Below are positions 1,163 to 13,009 of a stretch of DNA of 13,009 nt, in pieces. Source of the DNA: a virus (lineage: Duplodnaviria; Heunggongvirae; Uroviricota; Caudoviricetes); IMG/VR virus record IMGVR_UViG_2619619134_000011. One strand, 5' to 3'. Position numbers and translations under genes: made by a program. The notes beneath the pieces were generated by a model that saw only the letters and a program-made list of their open reading frames with translations, was not told the DNA's origin and did not search any database. Numbering within the stretch: position 1 is the first letter of the stretch; each line of letters starts with the position of its first letter.

Positions 1163-2824
1163 TTACACCCCGCTAAATTCTTCCAGTTTCTGGCGGTGGC
1201 TGTCGCTTATATCAAAAGCAAAATCCTCATGCTCTGCCTGGAATGTACCAAACGCCATCAGCGCCGCCACGCTCGGGTCTATCTTGTTCGGTGATTTTTT
1301 CTTGTTCGGCTTGATATTGGCGTTCGCGTCACTCTGCATCACGACGTTACTCATCGACCAGGACAACACCGGATCGCCACGATGCACAATCACCCTGCGG
1401 TTAACAAAAACTTCGAACGATTTCGCCGCCGGACTGAATCTGAGGTAGGTTTGCGGGAACGGCTCCACCTCAAAACCTGCCCCCTGTAATTGCGTTCTGA
1501 GATGCGTGGCGTTCCACGTATCAAAGCCCACCAGCCTGATATGAAATTTCTCCGCGTCCTGCATGATGTCATCTCTGATCCGGTCGTAATCAATGCAGTC
1601 GCCAGGCGTTGTGCGTATCCAGCCCGCTTTAGCCCACTGACGATAGACAGCGCGGTTTTTATTGGCGGGGTTCTGTAGCTGGAACTCCGGCAGATAATGA
1701 CGGGAAATCAGCATAATGGTTTTACCGACCGGAAAGGCATAGCATACGCTGGAAATATCGCTGGTTGATGATAAATCCAGCCCCGCGTAACACTCCTGGC
1801 CGTGTAAATCTTCCTCCGTGAACGTTCCGGCACACTCAGCCCATGCGCCGTTACCCATCCACGGGGTAGCCCCCTGGCACCAGATATTAAATCGCTTTGT
1901 CATCATCTCCACCCACTGCGACGGTATTCCCCGCGCTTTCTGGATGGTTGAGGCCAGTTTTTCACGATCGACGGAAACATCGATATTGGGATTCGCCTTT
2001 ATCCACATCGCCGGATCGTCAACCTCGCTTTCATCATCCAGCTCGTAAATCAGCACGAACATGGATTCGTTCACCTCTTCACCATCCAGTATCTGGCAGC
2101 AATAGTCGTAGTGTTGTTTACAGGCTGAAACAACGTTGCTCCCCGATGTGGTGATGGCAAATAACAGCCCCTCCGGACGCGCCCCCATTCCCAGTTCAAG
2201 CGCGGAATAAACCCCGTTGTCAGGGTGCAGGTGATATTCATCCACAATGGCAAGACTCGGGTTTGTGCCCTCGATGGTTGCCGCTTTTGCTGCCAGCGGC
2301 TTTAACAGGCTGTTGCTTTTCGGGTGCATCACCTTGTGGGCCTGAATATTCACCCGCCTGCGTAACGGTCGGGATAAAAGGCACATCTGACGCGCATCAT
2401 CAAAAACGATCCGCGCCTGGTCACGGCTCACCGCTGCGGTGTAAATATCCTGCTGCCCGTTCTCCATAATCAGAAACCAGTTAGCCAGAATCGCGGCGGT
2501 CGTGGATTTCGCATTTTTGCGTGGCACTTCGATAAAGGCGCTCGTGTATTTGCGCCGTCCGGTGGCCTTAACCTTAAAGCCGAGGATGCACGCAAAGGCG
2601 AACTGCTGCCACGGCTCCAGCTCAATGGGTCTGCCACGCATCGGCCCTTTTACGTGCGGACACACCCTGGAAAAGGCAATAAACCGCTCCACAACCTCAC
2701 GATCGAACGTGTAAAGGGGGCTTTCAAGGTCCGAAAAGTACCGTTTAACGGCCTGTTTCAGCCGTTTACAGGCCGGAATTTTGCCCGTTTTTACGTCTTC
2801 TGCGTACTTATTCCAGGCGGTCAA
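1163..2824 (-). CDS. terL: Terminase large subunit (HK97-like family)
   Basis: 553-aa ORF overlapping the terS stop by 17 nt. N-terminal P-loop-like segment (PRKNAKST) and the length and layout of phage large terminases, directly downstream of HNH and TerS. Family assignment is by recognition, not by search. Confidence 0.85.
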   Translation of the reverse strand: MTAWNKYAEDVKTGKIPACKRLKQAVKRYFSDLESPLYTFDREVVERFIAFSRVCPHVKGPMRGRPIELEPWQQFAFACILGFKVKATGRRKYTSAFIEVPRKNAKSTTAAILANWFLIMENGQQDIYTAAVSRDQARIVFDDARQMCLLSRPLRRRVNIQAHKVMHPKSNSLLKPLAAKAATIEGTNPSLAIVDEYHLHPDNGVYSALELGMGARPEGLLFAITTSGSNVVSACKQHYDYCCQILDGEEVNESMFVLIYELDDESEVDDPAMWIKANPNIDVSVDREKLASTIQKARGIPSQWVEMMTKRFNIWCQGATPWMGNGAWAECAGTFTEEDLHGQECYAGLDLSSTSDISSVCYAFPVGKTIMLISRHYLPEFQLQNPANKNRAVYRQWAKAGWIRTTPGDCIDYDRIRDDIMQDAEKFHIRLVGFDTWNATHLRTQLQGAGFEVEPFPQTYLRFSPAAKSFEVFVNRRVIVHRGDPVLSWSMSNVVMQSDANANIKPNKKKSPNKIDPSVAALMAFGTFQAEHEDFAFDISDSHRQKLEEFSGV

Positions 2825-3164
2825 GCTCGTCCTCTTCTTCTGTTTCCGGTGGATTTTTACGGCGGCTTATCGGGTCAAAACCGAGCAAGGAGGCCATTTT
2901 TATCATCACTCTTTCAGCGTCGGATTTTGCGCTTAATGCGGGGTTTCTGCTCTCGCCGCCCTGACTGTTAACAATGCTGAACCCGCGCGCCGCAAGGTCT
3001 GCAACGGCTTTCCGGTAAATGGAGTAGTTGACACAATACAGTTCCAGATTACTCCAGTCGGCGGGGGTAAGGTCTCCCCGTTCCGCAAGCTGCCGCGATT
3101 TTCCCCGCCACTGCTTCACGGCGATATCATCCAGGTAGGCGGGGGCTTTCGGTGGTCTTGCCAT
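2808..3164 (-). CDS. terS: Terminase small subunit (P27-like family)
   Basis: 118-aa ORF directly upstream of and overlapping terL. Size, acidic C-terminus and position fit a small terminase. No clear Shine-Dalgarno; the upstream region is AT-rich. Confidence 0.7.
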   Translation of the reverse strand: MARPPKAPAYLDDIAVKQWRGKSRQLAERGDLTPADWSNLELYCVNYSIYRKAVADLAARGFSIVNSQGGESRNPALSAKSDAERVMIKMASLLGFDPISRRKNPPETEEEDELDRLE

Positions 3165-3217
3165 GCTTATTTTTTCGCCAGATTATTTTTCAAAAAATTC
3201 CCGTGCATAAAAATTTG

Positions 3218-3277
3218 AGGAGGCGGTCGGTGCCCGGCGGGGTCGGGTTTGTCCTGAAAACGCCCCCCCACCCCGTC
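3218..3277. other. Candidate cos core (cosN-like GC-rich dyad) in the HNH-terS intergenic region
   Basis: The 290-bp gap between HNH stop (3455) and terS start (3164) holds a G-rich block (GGCGGTCGGTGCCCGGCGGGGTCGGG) and a C-rich block (CGCCCCCCCACCCCG) around TTTGTCCTGAAAA, giving approximate two-fold symmetry. An AT-rich tract (3165-3217) lies between it and terS. In HK97/lambda-like phages cos sits between HNH and terS. This is inference. Confidence 0.3.
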
Positions 3278-3454
3278 ATACAGCCTCATCAGCGATTGCG
3301 GAAACATTCCATAACCTCGCGGTCACGGTCGGTTAATCGCTTCGCTGTGATGCGTTCTGCGCGTCCTGACGCTTTATCTTTATGCCCTGTTTCCTGTGTC
3401 TTCCATGCGTCACGCTGCCTTATAAGTCCACGGATAAGGCGGTTTTGTTCCCGC

Positions 3455-3895
3455 TCATTCATCAGCGTCATACATCCAGTTATTGCGGTTAGCGGCCCGT
3501 TCTTCCTCCTCACGGAATCCGCCAGCGGCACGCTTGCTTTTTGTTGCCGGATCAAGCCACTTCGTTTTCTGGTTATGACACGCCTGGCACAATGGCTGAT
3601 GGTTCCATTCGGGCCAGAAGAGAACATCATCACCGCCATTAATCGGGATAATGTGATCCACCACCACGGCGGGCGTATATATCCCCTTCTCAAGGCATCG
3701 CACGCATAACGGGTTTTTACTCAGATACATGGCGCGGTATTTGTCCCACTGTCTGGAGTACCCACGCGCGCGGCGGTGTCCTCGTCTGGCATCCTCTGCA
3801 CGCCATGCCGCCCGCCTGTGCTCCTCACACTTGCCGGACTTCACGCGCCTGTTACAGCCTGGTTCTGTGCATCGTCTTAATGGTTGCCACGGCAT
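3455..3895 (-). CDS. HNH endonuclease (terminase-associated)
   Basis: 146 aa with N-terminal Cys pairs (CTEPGC, KCEEH) and an HNH core (VVDHIIP ... NHQPLCQACHNQKT). Its start overlaps the stop of the upstream connector gene as ATGA. It lies immediately upstream of terS-terL, as HNH does in HK97-like packaging modules. Confidence 0.85.
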   Translation of the reverse strand: MPWQPLRRCTEPGCNRRVKSGKCEEHRRAAWRAEDARRGHRRARGYSRQWDKYRAMYLSKNPLCVRCLEKGIYTPAVVVDHIIPINGGDDVLFWPEWNHQPLCQACHNQKTKWLDPATKSKRAAGGFREEEERAANRNNWMYDADE

Positions 3896-4191
3896 CAGTA
3901 CACCCCCACATCACGGTAAGCCGTCCAGAGTGCGCCTATCGTCATGGGTACGCGTGTTTTTGCGTTATCCGCGACAATCTGGCGATTTTCATACAGGTGA
4001 GCGATAAACATCATGCAGCCAATCTTTATGGCTGGCGTGAACGCCAGCCCGTCATCAAAGCGCCTGCCTATATGTATCTGGCACGCCTCAAGCGATGCGG
4101 CAATGTATCCGCTGATTAACTGGTCTTCCTCGTCGCCATCGATGCGGCAATGGAGTTTCACTTCTTCCAGGGTGATAAGTTCTTCTGTCAT
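3895..4191 (-). CDS. Head-tail connector protein (gp6-like)
   Basis: 98 aa with the N-terminal ITLEEVKLHCRIDGDEEDQLISGYIAA pattern typical of gp6-like connector proteins. Overlaps the upstream gene by 4 nt. Confidence 0.65.
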   Translation of the reverse strand: MTEELITLEEVKLHCRIDGDEEDQLISGYIAASLEACQIHIGRRFDDGLAFTPAIKIGCMMFIAHLYENRQIVADNAKTRVPMTIGALWTAYRDVGVY

Positions 4192-4526
4192 TTTTCCGCG
4201 CCCTCACGACAAAGAATTTCAAGGCGTGTCCTGGCGGCATCCGGCAGCGGCTGCCCGATGATATTCAGTACACGCCCCGCCAGCGGCCCCGTATTGACCT
4301 TTACCCGGCTGGTGGCGTTGATGTCCTTCCTGTAGCGTATCCATATCCTTACCGTTCCAGTCGCCAGTTCTGCACCCGATGAAATGGCCTCCTTGCTGCT
4401 GATCATGTTCACGCTTGCCCAGAGTGTGTGACCGTCCACCCACGTTTCGAGTATTTCGCCGGTTATATCCCTGGTCTGTTTCAGGGTCTGAATCGTTACC
4501 CTGTCACGCAGTCGCCCTATGTTCAT
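4188..4526 (-). CDS. Head-tail joining / head closure protein
   Basis: Track ORF 4188-4568 trimmed to the ATG at 4526, which overlaps the portal stop as ATGA. The protein (MNIGRLRDRVTIQ ... GEILETWVD ... WASV) resembles phage head-tail joining proteins. Confidence 0.65.
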   Translation of the reverse strand: MNIGRLRDRVTIQTLKQTRDITGEILETWVDGHTLWASVNMISSKEAISSGAELATGTVRIWIRYRKDINATSRVKVNTGPLAGRVLNIIGQPLPDAARTRLEILCREGAEK

Positions 4527-11562: not shown

Positions 11563-11920
11563 GTTTACCCCCCTGAATGACCTGATAACCGCAACTGGTC
11601 AGCAACTCGATAAATTCCGGCAGTGTGCCGAAACAGCAATCATCACGCAGCCGTTCGCAGGATACCTCGACGCCGTTTTCGTAGTGACTCACCATACATC
11701 CGGTAAAATGCAGATCATCATCGTGATGGCTCGTTGACGGCTTAATCAGTCGCGCACGTTCCGCCAGTTCCAGCAATGCTTCAACGCTTCCGGCAATTGC
11801 ACCATCCGGCAGGTGATAATTACGCACTATGCGCCCGTTCTCCACATTGACCAGCAACTGCCCGGTAAATTTCTCGTCAAACTGAATGCTGTTAAGGTCA
11901 GAAATTGACAGGTTATGCAT
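11555..11920 (-). CDS. Hypothetical protein (121 aa)
   Basis: Track ORF 11555-11938 trimmed to the ATG at 11920, which has a near-perfect AGGAGGTG Shine-Dalgarno 6 nt upstream and overlaps the upstream stop. No recognised motif. Confidence 0.55.
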   Translation of the reverse strand: MHNLSISDLNSIQFDEKFTGQLLVNVENGRIVRNYHLPDGAIAGSVEALLELAERARLIKPSTSHHDDDLHFTGCMVSHYENGVEVSCERLRDDCCFGTLPEFIELLTSCGYQVIQGGKHA

Positions 11921-12137
11921 GGTGCACCTCCTGCACATCAGCCATGATAATTTTTCCGGCCTTATCCAGTGCCTGATCGGCTTTTAGCTGCACAAATGCT
12001 AAATAATGGAAGATGCATTCTGATTCTCTGGCTGCGTGTTTATGCGCCCTGTCAGCAATAACAGAAATATCAATAAGCGCGTGCATCAGCGTAGTGAGCG
12101 CGGCGGCTGCTGCGTCCGGTGTGGTTTTATTGCACAT
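11913..12137 (-). CDS. Hypothetical protein (74 aa)
   Basis: ORF in the operon stack, overlapping both neighbours. No recognised motif. Confidence 0.45.
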   Translation of the reverse strand: MCNKTTPDAAAAALTTLMHALIDISVIADRAHKHAARESECIFHYLAFVQLKADQALDKAGKIIMADVQEVHHA

Positions 12138-12333
12138 GGCCTACCCCCTGGCGAATACGGGCAGCGAATACCATCACGCAGCCATCAGGAGATTGCTGAC
12201 GCGCTTCCTGTTCGCTGGTGGCCTCAATGGTAATCACGCGCGGTTGTGCCGTGCTCAGGGCGATAAAACGCCAGATGTATTTATTCAGGTTGTGCGAGTC
12301 CCGCCCTTGCGGGTGTGTGGTATGATTTCTCAT
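12127..12333 (-). CDS. Hypothetical protein (68 aa), first gene of the leftward operon
   Basis: C-terminal part of track ORF 12127-12789, starting at the ATG at 12333 with AGGT 4 nt upstream. The upstream 150 codons of the track ORF are antisense to the RHH gene and read through the operators and a terminator hairpin, so were discarded. Confidence 0.4.
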   Translation of the reverse strand: MRNHTTHPQGRDSHNLNKYIWRFIALSTAQPRVITIEATSEQEARQQSPDGCVMVFAARIRQGVGHVQ

Positions 12334-12433
12334 AGCTACCTCGATACGCTTTCTATCGTTGGTGGTTAGAAGCCCTGCGAGTGTTCCACCACTGCGGGGC
12401 TTCGCTGTATTTAATGGTTGCGTATCTTCAATA

Positions 12434-12478
12434 TGGTACGTACCATTGGGTTTCAGTTTATAACGGTGGTACGTACCA
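12434..12478. promoter_or_regulatory. Twin palindromic operators in the divergent intergenic region
   Basis: Two identical perfect 12-bp palindromes TGGTACGTACCA at 12434-12445 and 12467-12478, centres 33 bp apart. The second ends 1 nt before the ATG of the plus-strand RHH-like gene. They lie between the divergent starts at 12333 (minus) and 12479 (plus). Confidence 0.65.
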
Positions 12479-12661
12479 ATGCAAGAAAAAAATGAGAAAC
12501 CAAAATTTGATCGCTCTGGCAGCACAAAGAAAAACATCCGCTTCGAAGACACATTGTTGCAACAAATTAACGAAGTTGCTGGGCCTGGTAATTTCAGTTC
12601 ATGGGTTAAAAATGCCTGTCGTGACAAGCTACGCAAAGAAGGCATAGAACCAAAAGGCTGA
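12479..12661 (+). CDS. Small DNA-binding regulator, ribbon-helix-helix-like (60 aa)
   Basis: The only convincing plus-strand gene. The pattern basic N-terminus, KKNIRFEDTLLQQINEVAG, G.NFSSWVKNACRDKL fits a beta-strand plus two-helix RHH fold as I recall it. GGTGG lies 9 nt upstream of the ATG; a terminator follows. Confidence 0.5.
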   Translation: MQEKNEKPKFDRSGSTKKNIRFEDTLLQQINEVAGPGNFSSWVKNACRDKLRKEGIEPKG

Positions 12662-12752
12662 TAGTCCACCAGCAAGCCAGCACACTGAGCACATTGCCCA
12701 CCAGCCAGCAAATCGCTATGATGTTCGGGCTTATGTTTAGTGTTTTCCCATT

Positions 12753-12780
12753 GGCGACCGCCCCAGGTCGCCTTTGTTTT
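12753..12780 (+). terminator. Rho-independent terminator after the RHH-like gene
   Basis: GGCGACC-GCCCCA-GGTCGCC (7-bp GC-rich stem) followed by TTTGTTTT on the plus strand, between the RHH gene and the end of alpA. Confidence 0.6.
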
Positions 12781-12799
12781 ATGTGTCATATGCTCCCCT

Positions 12800-13009
12800 T
12801 TACACTGCCTTACCTGAATTAATGCGATCCCGGCTTTTAACCCATTCCATAACCTCGGACAGCAGCCACCCTACAGAACGACCGCCCAGATTAAGACGTG
12901 ACGGAAAGCGCCCTTTTTTCTCCAGTTCGTAACGTGTAGTGCGGCACACTCCAGTTAACTTACGACATTCATCCTCACGGATTACGCGATCTTCATTTAT
13001 TTCACGCAT
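12800..13009 (-). CDS. alpA: AlpA-family transcriptional regulator / excisionase-like protein
   Basis: 69 aa with the HTH segment CRKLTGVCRTTRYELEKKGRFPSRLNLGGRSVGWLLSEVMEWV, characteristic of AlpA-family proteins. The ATG is the last three bases of the window, so the upstream region (and any integrase) is outside it. Confidence 0.8.
   Translation of the reverse strand: MREINEDRVIREDECRKLTGVCRTTRYELEKKGRFPSRLNLGGRSVGWLLSEVMEWVKSRDRINSGKAV

Follow-up and report, generated by a model that had tools for sequence, protein, structure and literature searches.

The window analysed here is a stretch of 13,009 nucleotides of DNA from a virus of the class Caudoviricetes (Duplodnaviria; Heunggongvirae; Uroviricota; IMG/VR record IMGVR_UViG_2619619134_000011), which by its gene content is a capsid-forming phage-inducible chromosomal island (cf-PICI; PICI for the wider class). 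The subject of this report is the region where its leftward operon meets ylcI, a small gene on the opposite strand. The explanation that we favour overall, with a confidence somewhat above even, is that the YlcI protein acts as a ribbon-helix-helix (RHH) repressor at two identical operators, that an antisense RNA of the SymR family adds a second layer of control over the killer-like first gene of the operon, and that translation of a long open reading frame (ORF) may override both. An earlier note on this DNA, made from the letters alone, had proposed a divergent RHH-like regulator with twin palindromic operators. That interpretation is partly supported; it had missed the SymR-like RNA, the eta-like ORF antisense to ylcI and the correspondence with the immunity region of satellite P4. 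The principal features are these:

12479..12661, plus strand: ylcI, encoding a 60-amino-acid protein of the DUF3950/YlcI-YnfO family, a predicted RHH DNA binder
12467..12478, strand not applicable: O1, the putative proximal operator TGGTACGTACCA, abutting the ylcI ATG and occupying most of the spacer of the predicted leftward promoter
12434..12445, strand not applicable: O2, the putative distal operator TGGTACGTACCA, covering positions +4 to +17 or so of the transcript predicted from the leftward promoter
12334..12412, plus strand: predicted SymR-family cis-antisense small RNA of about 79 nt (3' end approximate), complementary to the icd 5' untranslated region (5'UTR) including the ribosome-binding site (RBS)
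12127..12333, minus strand: icd/kil-like gene of 68 amino acids, first of the leftward operon, overlapping at its stop with the beginning of the next ORF (11913-12137)
12127..12789, minus strand: eta-like ORF of 220 codons, starting with an ATG that has a Shine-Dalgarno (SD) sequence AGGGGAG, 10 nt past the alpA stop; its C-terminal end is Icd/Kil

The gap between the icd-like start (ATG at 12333, reading leftward) and the ylcI ATG at 12479 is 145 bp (12334-12478).

The YlcI protein

The product of ylcI belongs to a family without an assigned function. It scores 33.1 bits against Pfam DUF3950 (PF13132, cut-off 25) and 31.1 bits against the NCBIfam model YlcI_YnfO_N (NF041551, cut-off 30), and the PGAP annotation of E. 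coli genomes names it 'YlcI/YnfO family protein'. A profile search of 1.84 billion representatives yielded 119 relatives, which have in common the pattern K-N-I-R-F ... L-L-x-x-I ... F-S-x-W-V-K-x-A-C-R. The family ranges over the Enterobacterales, with one distant relative in Aliiglaciecola (L054), and the allele of the window, at 90% identity or more, is found in 72 of 5,426 complete E. coli genomes.

An AlphaFold2 model of the YlcI monomer (mean predicted local distance difference test score, pLDDT, 81) comprises an extended N-terminal segment at about residues 16–23 followed by helices at 24–34 and 39–53. This is the beta-strand, helix, helix order over about 45 residues that is expected of the RHH topology, and on this model YlcI is RHH-like, as the earlier note had suggested. 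None of the curated RHH families (RHH_1, Arc, MetJ) is matched by YlcI, a Pfam scan at E <= 0.1 giving DUF3950 only, and a profile search of the PDB returned the RHH protein CdbA at a non-significant E of 0.4. The dyad symmetry of the operators and the co-variation of residues 17 and 19 described below lend indirect support to a YlcI homodimer that would place an intermolecular beta-sheet in the major groove.

ylcI lies within the eta-like ORF on the opposite strand. Among 43 alleles compared pairwise, conservation is higher in the YlcI frame in 741 pairs and higher in the antisense frame that overlaps it in 101, which argues that ylcI is a genuine gene. The converse reading, in which the 220-amino-acid minus-strand ORF is the real gene and ylcI an artefact, is ruled out by this conservation and by the match to a curated family. 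PGAP annotates ylcI as the only plus-strand coding sequence (CDS) of the island, all other genes being on the minus strand. In this, and in giving the gene its own terminator, the earlier note was correct, the latter by a consensus scan only:

12753..12782, plus strand: terminator-like hairpin and T-run downstream of ylcI

A promoter-like TTGCCC-17-TATGAT is located at 12694-12722 (plus), between the ylcI stop and this hairpin; if it were used, the transcript would be about 50 nt long. There is no SD sequence upstream of ylcI.

Members of the DUF3950 family vary in size and setting. Some homologues (P0029, P0036, P0043 and others) are 110–160 amino acids long and carry a C-terminal extension resembling a small helix-turn-helix, and the profile matches a 3,520-amino-acid protein (P0009) in 23 separate stretches. 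Phage lambda contains an unannotated DUF3950/YlcI-like ORF (MSTKNRTRRTTTRNIRFPNQMIEQINIALEQKGSGNFSAWVIEACRRRL...) at about 1111-1305 of our lambda segment (L097), which corresponds to about 48110-48304 of lambda on the minus strand, some 200 bp from cos. The lambda ORF has an SD sequence. Twin TGGT..ACCA sites, or a TGGTnnnnACCA pair, were looked for upstream of the lambda ORF and none was found. In a Stx-like phage the DUF3950 homologue is divergent from the HNH-terminase genes.

Probable twin operators that co-vary with YlcI

The palindrome TGGTACGTACCA occurs exactly twice in the window, 33 bp apart from start to start. The degenerate pattern TGGTNNNNACCA finds these two sites only in the 13 kb, where 0.15 would be expected, and the same two sites are the only ones in the island of E. 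coli TOE17. The earlier note had described two identical perfect palindromes with this spacing, one of them touching the start codon, and the description is exact: O1 ends at 12478 and the ATG begins at 12479.

Homologous loci were taken from species-representative genomes (54) and viral contigs (40), about 90 of which entered the analysis of co-variation. In nearly all of these a pair of 12-mers of the form TGGTnnnnACCA is located at -45 (or -46) and -12 (or -11) from the ylcI ATG. The sequence between O2 and O1 diverges freely across loci. The central bases of the operator switch along with YlcI residues 17–19, in the predicted beta-strand S-T-x-K-x-I-R-F, and form seven classes, given here as residues 17–19, operator centre and number:

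MKN: centre AGGT/ACCT, n = 37
KKN: centre ACGT, n = 20
MKH: centre AGTT/AACT, n = 14
AKN: centre ATAT, n = 7
RRT: centre TCGC/TCGA, n = 5
RKI: centres TCAT/ATGA and GCAT/ATGC, n = 2
VKN: centre ATGT/ACAT, n = 1

In RHH proteins such as Arc, MetJ and CopG, alternate residues of the beta-strand enter the major groove at the centre of the operator. The MKN class keeps its AGGT/ACCT pairing in two genomic contexts, in L063 and L065, where the first leftward gene is of the Icd type, and in L020-L050, where it is of the SymE type. The conserved position of the sites, together with the co-variation of operator centre and protein residues, is strong comparative evidence for binding, and we consider it very likely that YlcI binds O1 and O2, the role the earlier note had proposed for the palindromes.

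Two kinds of decay of this module were seen. In the Trabulsiella loci L029 and L055 (about 2440-2500) the 33 bp between O2 and O1 are deleted, leaving one operator, and in L045 ylcI has a nonsense codon at codon 2 (ATG TAA) with both operators intact.

A predicted leftward promoter between the operators

The two operators lie close to promoter-like hexamers on the minus strand:

12479..12484, minus strand: predicted -35, TTGCAT, the reverse complement of ylcI codons 1–2 (ATGCAA)
12455..12462, minus strand: predicted -10 between the operators, read as TAAACT (spacer 18 nt) or as TATAAA (spacer 16 nt)

TTGCAT is kept in 84 of 85 unique loci. A minus-strand TAnnnT follows at a spacer of 16–18 nt in 81 of the 85, in the form of 22 different hexamers, where chance would give about 0.12 per locus; read on the plus strand, the hexamer with the same TA ends in T in just 24 of the 81. 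Codon 2 of ylcI is CAA in 86 of 87 alleles, and the glutamine codons elsewhere in ylcI are CAA and CAG in the proportion 73 : 61. These observations point to a predicted leftward sigma-70 promoter that spans O1 and has its -10 between O1 and O2, similar in position to the PLE promoter of satellite P4. With O1 in its spacer and O2 at about +4 to +17, the predicted arrangement is the geometry of a repressor. As the sites bracket a conserved leftward promoter, the most likely role of YlcI is to repress the operon led by icd/kil, and we regard such repression as probable. Of the claim in the earlier note that the leftward operon is repressed, the geometry thus stands and the repression itself is what we infer from it.

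A probable SymR-family antisense RNA upstream of icd

The part of the 145-bp region next to icd is occupied by a predicted RNA gene on the plus strand:

12318..12326, plus strand: TGgTATGAT within icd codons 3–6, predicted -10 for the antisense RNA
12341-12359, plus strand: predicted stem-loop 1
12369-12403, plus strand: predicted stem-loop 2, terminator-like

The earlier note gave the length of the 145-bp region correctly and missed the predicted RNA gene. Of 85 unique loci, 82 have a plus-strand TAnnnT at most 16 nt from the start of the first gene, in the form of 12 different hexamers, and its position is that of the -10 (TAGAAT) of E. coli K-12 symR. Mutation of the K-12 -10 abolishes SymR, which proves that it is functional (Kawano, Aravind and Storz 2007, PMC1891008). 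The fold is more stable on the plus strand in 76 of 79 loci, and G.U pairs number 377 on this strand against 71 on the other. RNAalifold predicts the two stem-loops from 51 sequences, with compensatory changes in 12 of 21 pairs.

A covariance model, R1, was built from the loci of this analysis and includes no K-12 sequences. It finds K-12 symR with 40 bits and an E-value of about 2e-7, the E-values of R1 being rough because of a short calibration. The match (L099 2836-2918, plus) covers model positions 1–80 of 80 and begins at the annotated 5' end of symR, which links the window to the experimentally defined SymR of K-12. The layout is also that of SymR: an RNA of about 77 nt that covers the start codon and RBS, a promoter within the first codons and two stem-loops. 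Taken together, the layout and the R1 match suggest that the window carries a divergent member of the SymR family, and it is likely, on this comparative evidence, that such an RNA is made from 12334-12412. The Rfam symR model (RF01809) has no match in the window or in L031 even at E <= 10, and so does not reach its gathering threshold there. The same model scores 95 bits on K-12 symR and is too narrow for the RNA of the window.

The resemblance to K-12 symE-symR extends beyond the RNA. There, too, a 77-nt antisense RNA starts from the start codon of the first gene with its -10 within the first codons, and symR likewise has two stem-loops, the second with a loop of the GTGTTGGCGCAC type. A repressor operator lies just past the 3' end of the RNA on the toxin promoter; this is a LexA box, placed where the YlcI sites are placed in the window. 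In many relatives the regulated gene is itself a SymE-family toxin. The systems differ in that the repressor of symE is the host SOS regulator LexA, whereas the window would use a self-encoded divergent RHH protein with two operators, and in that the first gene is SymE in K-12 and Icd/Kil-like in the window.

Other readings of this RNA region were set aside. The hairpin at 12369-12403 could be part of the leftward leader or a minus-strand terminator; the G.U pairs and folding energy favour the plus strand and no U-run follows on the minus strand. A pseudoknot between the hairpin loop UGGUGG and a downstream CCACCA was dropped, since no co-variation was apparent on inspection of other lineages. 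A weak Rfam match to the antisense RNA of plasmid R1162 (E 0.6–1.5) is non-significant and on the wrong strand.

The eta-like reading frame and the immunity region of P4

The icd-like product scores 70.4 bits against the NCBIfam model phage_ICD_like (NF033153), to which P4 Kil scores 76 bits. It forms the end of the eta-like ORF, which runs antisense through ylcI, sharing wobble positions with it, and through both operators and the RNA gene. Of 84 loci, 39 keep this frame open across ylcI; the two remaining frames are closed after at most 118 nt. The shared wobble positions and the few Tyr, His and Gln codons in ylcI make an open antisense frame across this gene easy to maintain; the openness across the 145-bp region and beyond is notable. 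The long open frame explains two odd annotations. In TOE17 PGAP calls an Icd-like CDS of 135 amino acids (L001 13988-14395, equal to window 12130-12537, minus strand) that starts inside ylcI on the opposite strand, and in genome H75 the Icd-like CDS extends over ylcI, which is itself left uncalled.

The same arrangement is found in the immunity region of satellite P4, at the same position and in the same gene order: an alpA/vis homologue is followed directly by a long ORF, which in P4 (8168-8764) starts at the vis stop. In both elements the terminal 65–68 or so codons of the long ORF are an Icd-like killer matching NF033153, the ORF encloses an internal promoter and also a regulatory RNA (those of the window being predicted), and the primase operon comes next. 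The passage of PMC10111431 that cites Forti et al. 1999 describes kil as the terminal part of eta, with PLE and the CI (C4-family) RNA internal to it, and describes translation of eta from an upstream late promoter as preventing termination, so that immunity is escaped. By analogy, the ylcI/operator/RNA region corresponds to the P4 immunity region. The means of control differ. P4 uses a sense-strand processed RNA, represented by Rfam matches to C4, isrK and c4-a1b1, with Rho-dependent termination, and lacks ylcI; the window would instead use an antisense SymR-like RNA and a protein repressor gene embedded antisense. An RNA of the P4/P1 C4 (CI) type upstream of icd was searched for with Rfam, and the three families found in P4 have no match in the window or in 20 related loci.

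A cassette that also occurs outside satellites

The first leftward gene varies from locus to locus. It may be Icd/Kil-like, a remnant of 32–42 amino acids, a 176-amino-acid protein, an 'ash family' gene or, in Enterobacter and its relatives, a SymE-family toxin (Pfam 60 bits). What all of these contexts share by homology is ylcI, both operators, the RNA, the leader and the first ten or so codons. The SymE-type loci lie beside a DRT/group-II-like reverse transcriptase and tRNA-Sec in a defence-island-like setting with no obvious satellite; they have no alpA upstream, and the cassette is unchanged. The features of one such locus, L031, are located as follows:

2031-2369, minus strand
2501-2662, plus strand
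2789-4414, plus strand
4424-4514

A common cassette in front of differing first genes suggests a unit of general use for the control of a toxic first gene. This describes the system better than the 'satellite switch' of the earlier note, since ylcI, its operators and the RNA also precede SymE toxin genes outside satellites.

Two related satellites contain an Rfam int-alpA RNA (RF02996) above the gathering score downstream of ylcI, at L005 3332-3398 and at L077 3820-3887 (minus). RF02996 has no match in the window, which ends within alpA.

Proposed mechanism

In the explanation that we favour, YlcI would be a small RHH repressor whose dimers occupy both 12-bp operators, with beta-strand residues, notably K17 and N19, reading the central base pairs of each. 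The operators would flank the -10 of a leftward sigma-70 promoter whose -35 is the complement of the first two codons of ylcI. Because O1 lies in the spacer and O2 over about +4 to +17, occupancy would shut off this internal promoter, the proposed equivalent of PLE, which would feed icd/kil and, through translational coupling, the downstream replication genes. O1 and O2 probably also limit transcription of ylcI, giving autoregulation. As a second layer, a constitutive SymR-family RNA would pair with the icd leader and RBS and keep leaky transcripts from being translated. Once alpA is turned on by a helper phage, upstream transcripts may be translated through the eta-like ORF, bypassing both controls and running antisense over ylcI. 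This step is modelled on the P4 PLL/eta transcripts that escape RNA immunity, and we propose this read-through override tentatively, as less than an even prospect.

A more far-reaching proposal assigns to YlcI, in a subset of Gram-negative PICIs that includes cf-PICIs, the part of the missing master repressor. It would then be part of a self-locking switch of protein and RNA that replaces the all-RNA immunity of P4, and residues 17 and 19 with the operator centre would be a swappable immunity-specificity code separating co-resident islands. As ylcI is embedded antisense in an ORF coupled to alpA, AlpA-driven read-through could silence it by transcriptional interference and antisense pairing, and translation of the long ORF would bypass the SymR-like RNA. 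We regard this proposal as speculative and on balance doubtful.

Several points weigh against the favoured explanation and its parts. The fold class, the conservation of the sites, the co-variation of protein and operator, the RNA family and the promoter-like hexamers all come from sequence and comparison, and it is from these that we infer YlcI binding, the direction of regulation, autoregulation and the read-through override. The operator classes coincide with clades, so that the co-variation amounts to only about seven independent protein–operator switches, and there are hybrid or imperfect sites, with O2 AGTT beside O1 ACCT in L018, L019 and L023 and ACGT/ACAT in L006-L011. O1 and O2 are complementary to each other, which leaves room for a role as an RNA or DNA hairpin. 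The predicted -35 agrees with the consensus at 3 of 6 positions, the spacer is long (mostly 18 nt) and a simple consensus promoter scan of the window did not flag the leftward promoter; the conservation of CAA at codon 2 could alternatively reflect a preference in translation initiation. The analysis found no convincing promoter for the ylcI gene. The eta-like frame is closed in more than half of the loci, and its product is non-globular-looking. The occurrence of the cassette outside satellites makes the link to PICI induction a conjecture.

Alternative explanations

The strongest alternative is that YlcI autoregulates only its own small unit and that the leftward operon is driven, independently of YlcI, solely from the alpA promoter or another upstream promoter. 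The operator abutting the ylcI start codon and the silence of the consensus scan on a leftward promoter agree with this, and AlpA is a documented activator of Gram-negative PICI genes (PMC6092414). It is nonetheless unlikely, since the hexamer between the sites reads as a minus-strand -10 in 81 of 85 loci and much less often as a plus-strand one, since an RNA of the SymR family presupposes a leftward mRNA with a 5'UTR that begins upstream of it, as for symE, and since the SymE-type loci keep the same cassette without an upstream alpA. Less probable still is that the two 12-mers act mainly as nucleic-acid structure. Pairing of the two across a 21-nt loop could give a stem of 12 bp, whether it forms in the ylcI 5'UTR, forms in the eta-like mRNA or arises as a cruciform, and this stem would control translation or termination, with protein binding secondary or absent. 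Asymmetric centres are usually inverted in O2 relative to O1 (AGGT/ACCT, AGTT/AACT, ATGT/ACAT, TCAT/ATGA), so that complementarity is preserved; even in the eight loci with direct AGTT/AGTT centres two G.U pairs would hold a plus-strand stem, and Rfam gives weak microRNA-precursor matches over 12434-12478. A stem between the sites does not need each site to be a dyad in itself (TGGTA..TACCA), whereas a dimeric protein does; nor does it account for centres that co-vary with YlcI residues 17 and 19, or for the non-complementary pairs of several lineages (TCGC/TCGA, ACGT/ACAT, AGTT/ACCT). A leftward transcript started between the sites would moreover hold O2 only.

YlcI might instead have a positive role or another partner, as an activator of the leftward promoter or its own, as a protein antitoxin against Kil or SymE, or in targeting helper-phage DNA. 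RHH proteins include activators and type II antitoxins, and DUF3950 homologues adjoin packaging genes in lambda-like phages, near cos. An operator within the -35/-10 spacer and another just past the start are arranged as for a repressor, however, and YlcI lacks a conserved C-terminal toxin-binding extension, the sequence past helix 2 being short and variable. The island has no further TGGTnnnnACCA sites, and the lambda homologue lacks such upstream sites, so this explanation too is quite improbable. The least credible of the alternatives, which we consider extremely unlikely, is that O1 and O2 are bound by a host or helper-phage factor and that their adjacency to ylcI reflects shared ancestry. 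The equivalent position in K-12 symE is indeed held by the host repressor LexA, and binding by YlcI is deduced from sequence. Against this, the operator centres differ among lineages in the same or related hosts and track the adjacent YlcI allele, even across genomic contexts.

Relation to other systems

The immI region of phage P22 (Mnt, Arc, Pant/Pmnt and sar RNA) is a comparable combination, in which small RHH repressors act at operators over close divergent promoters and an antisense RNA blocks translation of the regulated gene. Unlike the window, immI has two RHH proteins and regulates an antirepressor rather than a killer gene or replication operon. YlcI has no detectable sequence relationship to the P22 RHH proteins, the only match in a Pfam scan at E <= 0.1 being DUF3950.

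PICIs of Gram-positive bacteria of the SaPI type have the master repressors Stl and Rpr (PMC6092414). Their genes, like ylcI, are divergent from the replication and packaging operon, and YlcI would similarly keep the island quiescent. Stl proteins are large helix-turn-helix repressors that are inactivated by binding a helper-phage protein, whereas YlcI is a 60-amino-acid RHH protein whose gene lies downstream of alpA and inside another ORF. For Gram-negative PICIs the presence of any repressor has been described as unclear, with none known (PMC6092414); the statement in the earlier note that they are AlpA-activated without a dedicated divergent repressor was accurate.

Each component is known separately: repressors of the RHH type acting at paired operators, antisense RNAs directed at toxin genes, and the eta/kil arrangement of P4. 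Four points appear undescribed in the literature searched: a role for DUF3950/YlcI, the operator and specificity residues proposed for it, members of the SymR family at Icd/Kil genes of satellites, and the replacement of P4 RNA immunity by all three. In this literature we found no functional study of YlcI/DUF3950, of cf-PICI repressors or of SymE in satellites. Our analysis gives this domain of unknown function a predicted fold and candidate specificity residues, along with a consensus of 12 bp for its operator (TGGTnnnnACCA). It also provides a concrete candidate repressor for Gram-negative PICIs, in the cf-PICI lineage with EcCIEDL933-like elements. SymR-family antisense RNAs appear to be far more widespread than the Rfam family and may control Icd/Kil-type genes in satellites. 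The repressor, two operators, antisense RNA and first ten or so codons would form a portable cassette that has recombined onto different toxic genes, with LexA in the place of YlcI at K-12 symE.

Other features of the island

The gene upstream of the eta-like ORF is cut by the end of the window:

12800..13009, minus strand: alpA, of the P4 vis-like activator/excisionase family (Pfam Phage_AlpA, 60.3 bits), directly upstream of the eta-like ORF

From here the minus-strand genes follow in the order alpA, Icd-like gene, small ORFs, DUF4222, D5-type primase, capsid, protease, portal, connectors, HNH and terminase. E. coli TOE17 has a complete island that is 99% identical to the window and includes the integrase end; its annotated genes are an integrase, HK97-type capsid, protease, portal, connectors, HNH, TerS and TerL. 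The alpA, DUF4222 and D5-type primase genes of the window, together with the TOE17 gene set, are those of cf-PICIs, elements of about 15 kb. The gene set matches the description of the type to which EcCIEDL933 belongs (bioRxiv 10.1101/2022.09.08.507074).

The window is rich in Chi sites (GCTGGTGG). At the average density of the E. coli genome a 13 kb window would contain about 3. There are 16, of which 7 are on the plus and 9 on the minus strand, and shuffled sequences give an expectation of 0.40. Chi enrichment in PICIs was the subject of no paper found in our literature search. The richness may protect linear island DNA from RecBCD. Two minus-strand Chi sites lie 32 nt apart between ylcI and alpA (12666-12673 and 12698-12705).

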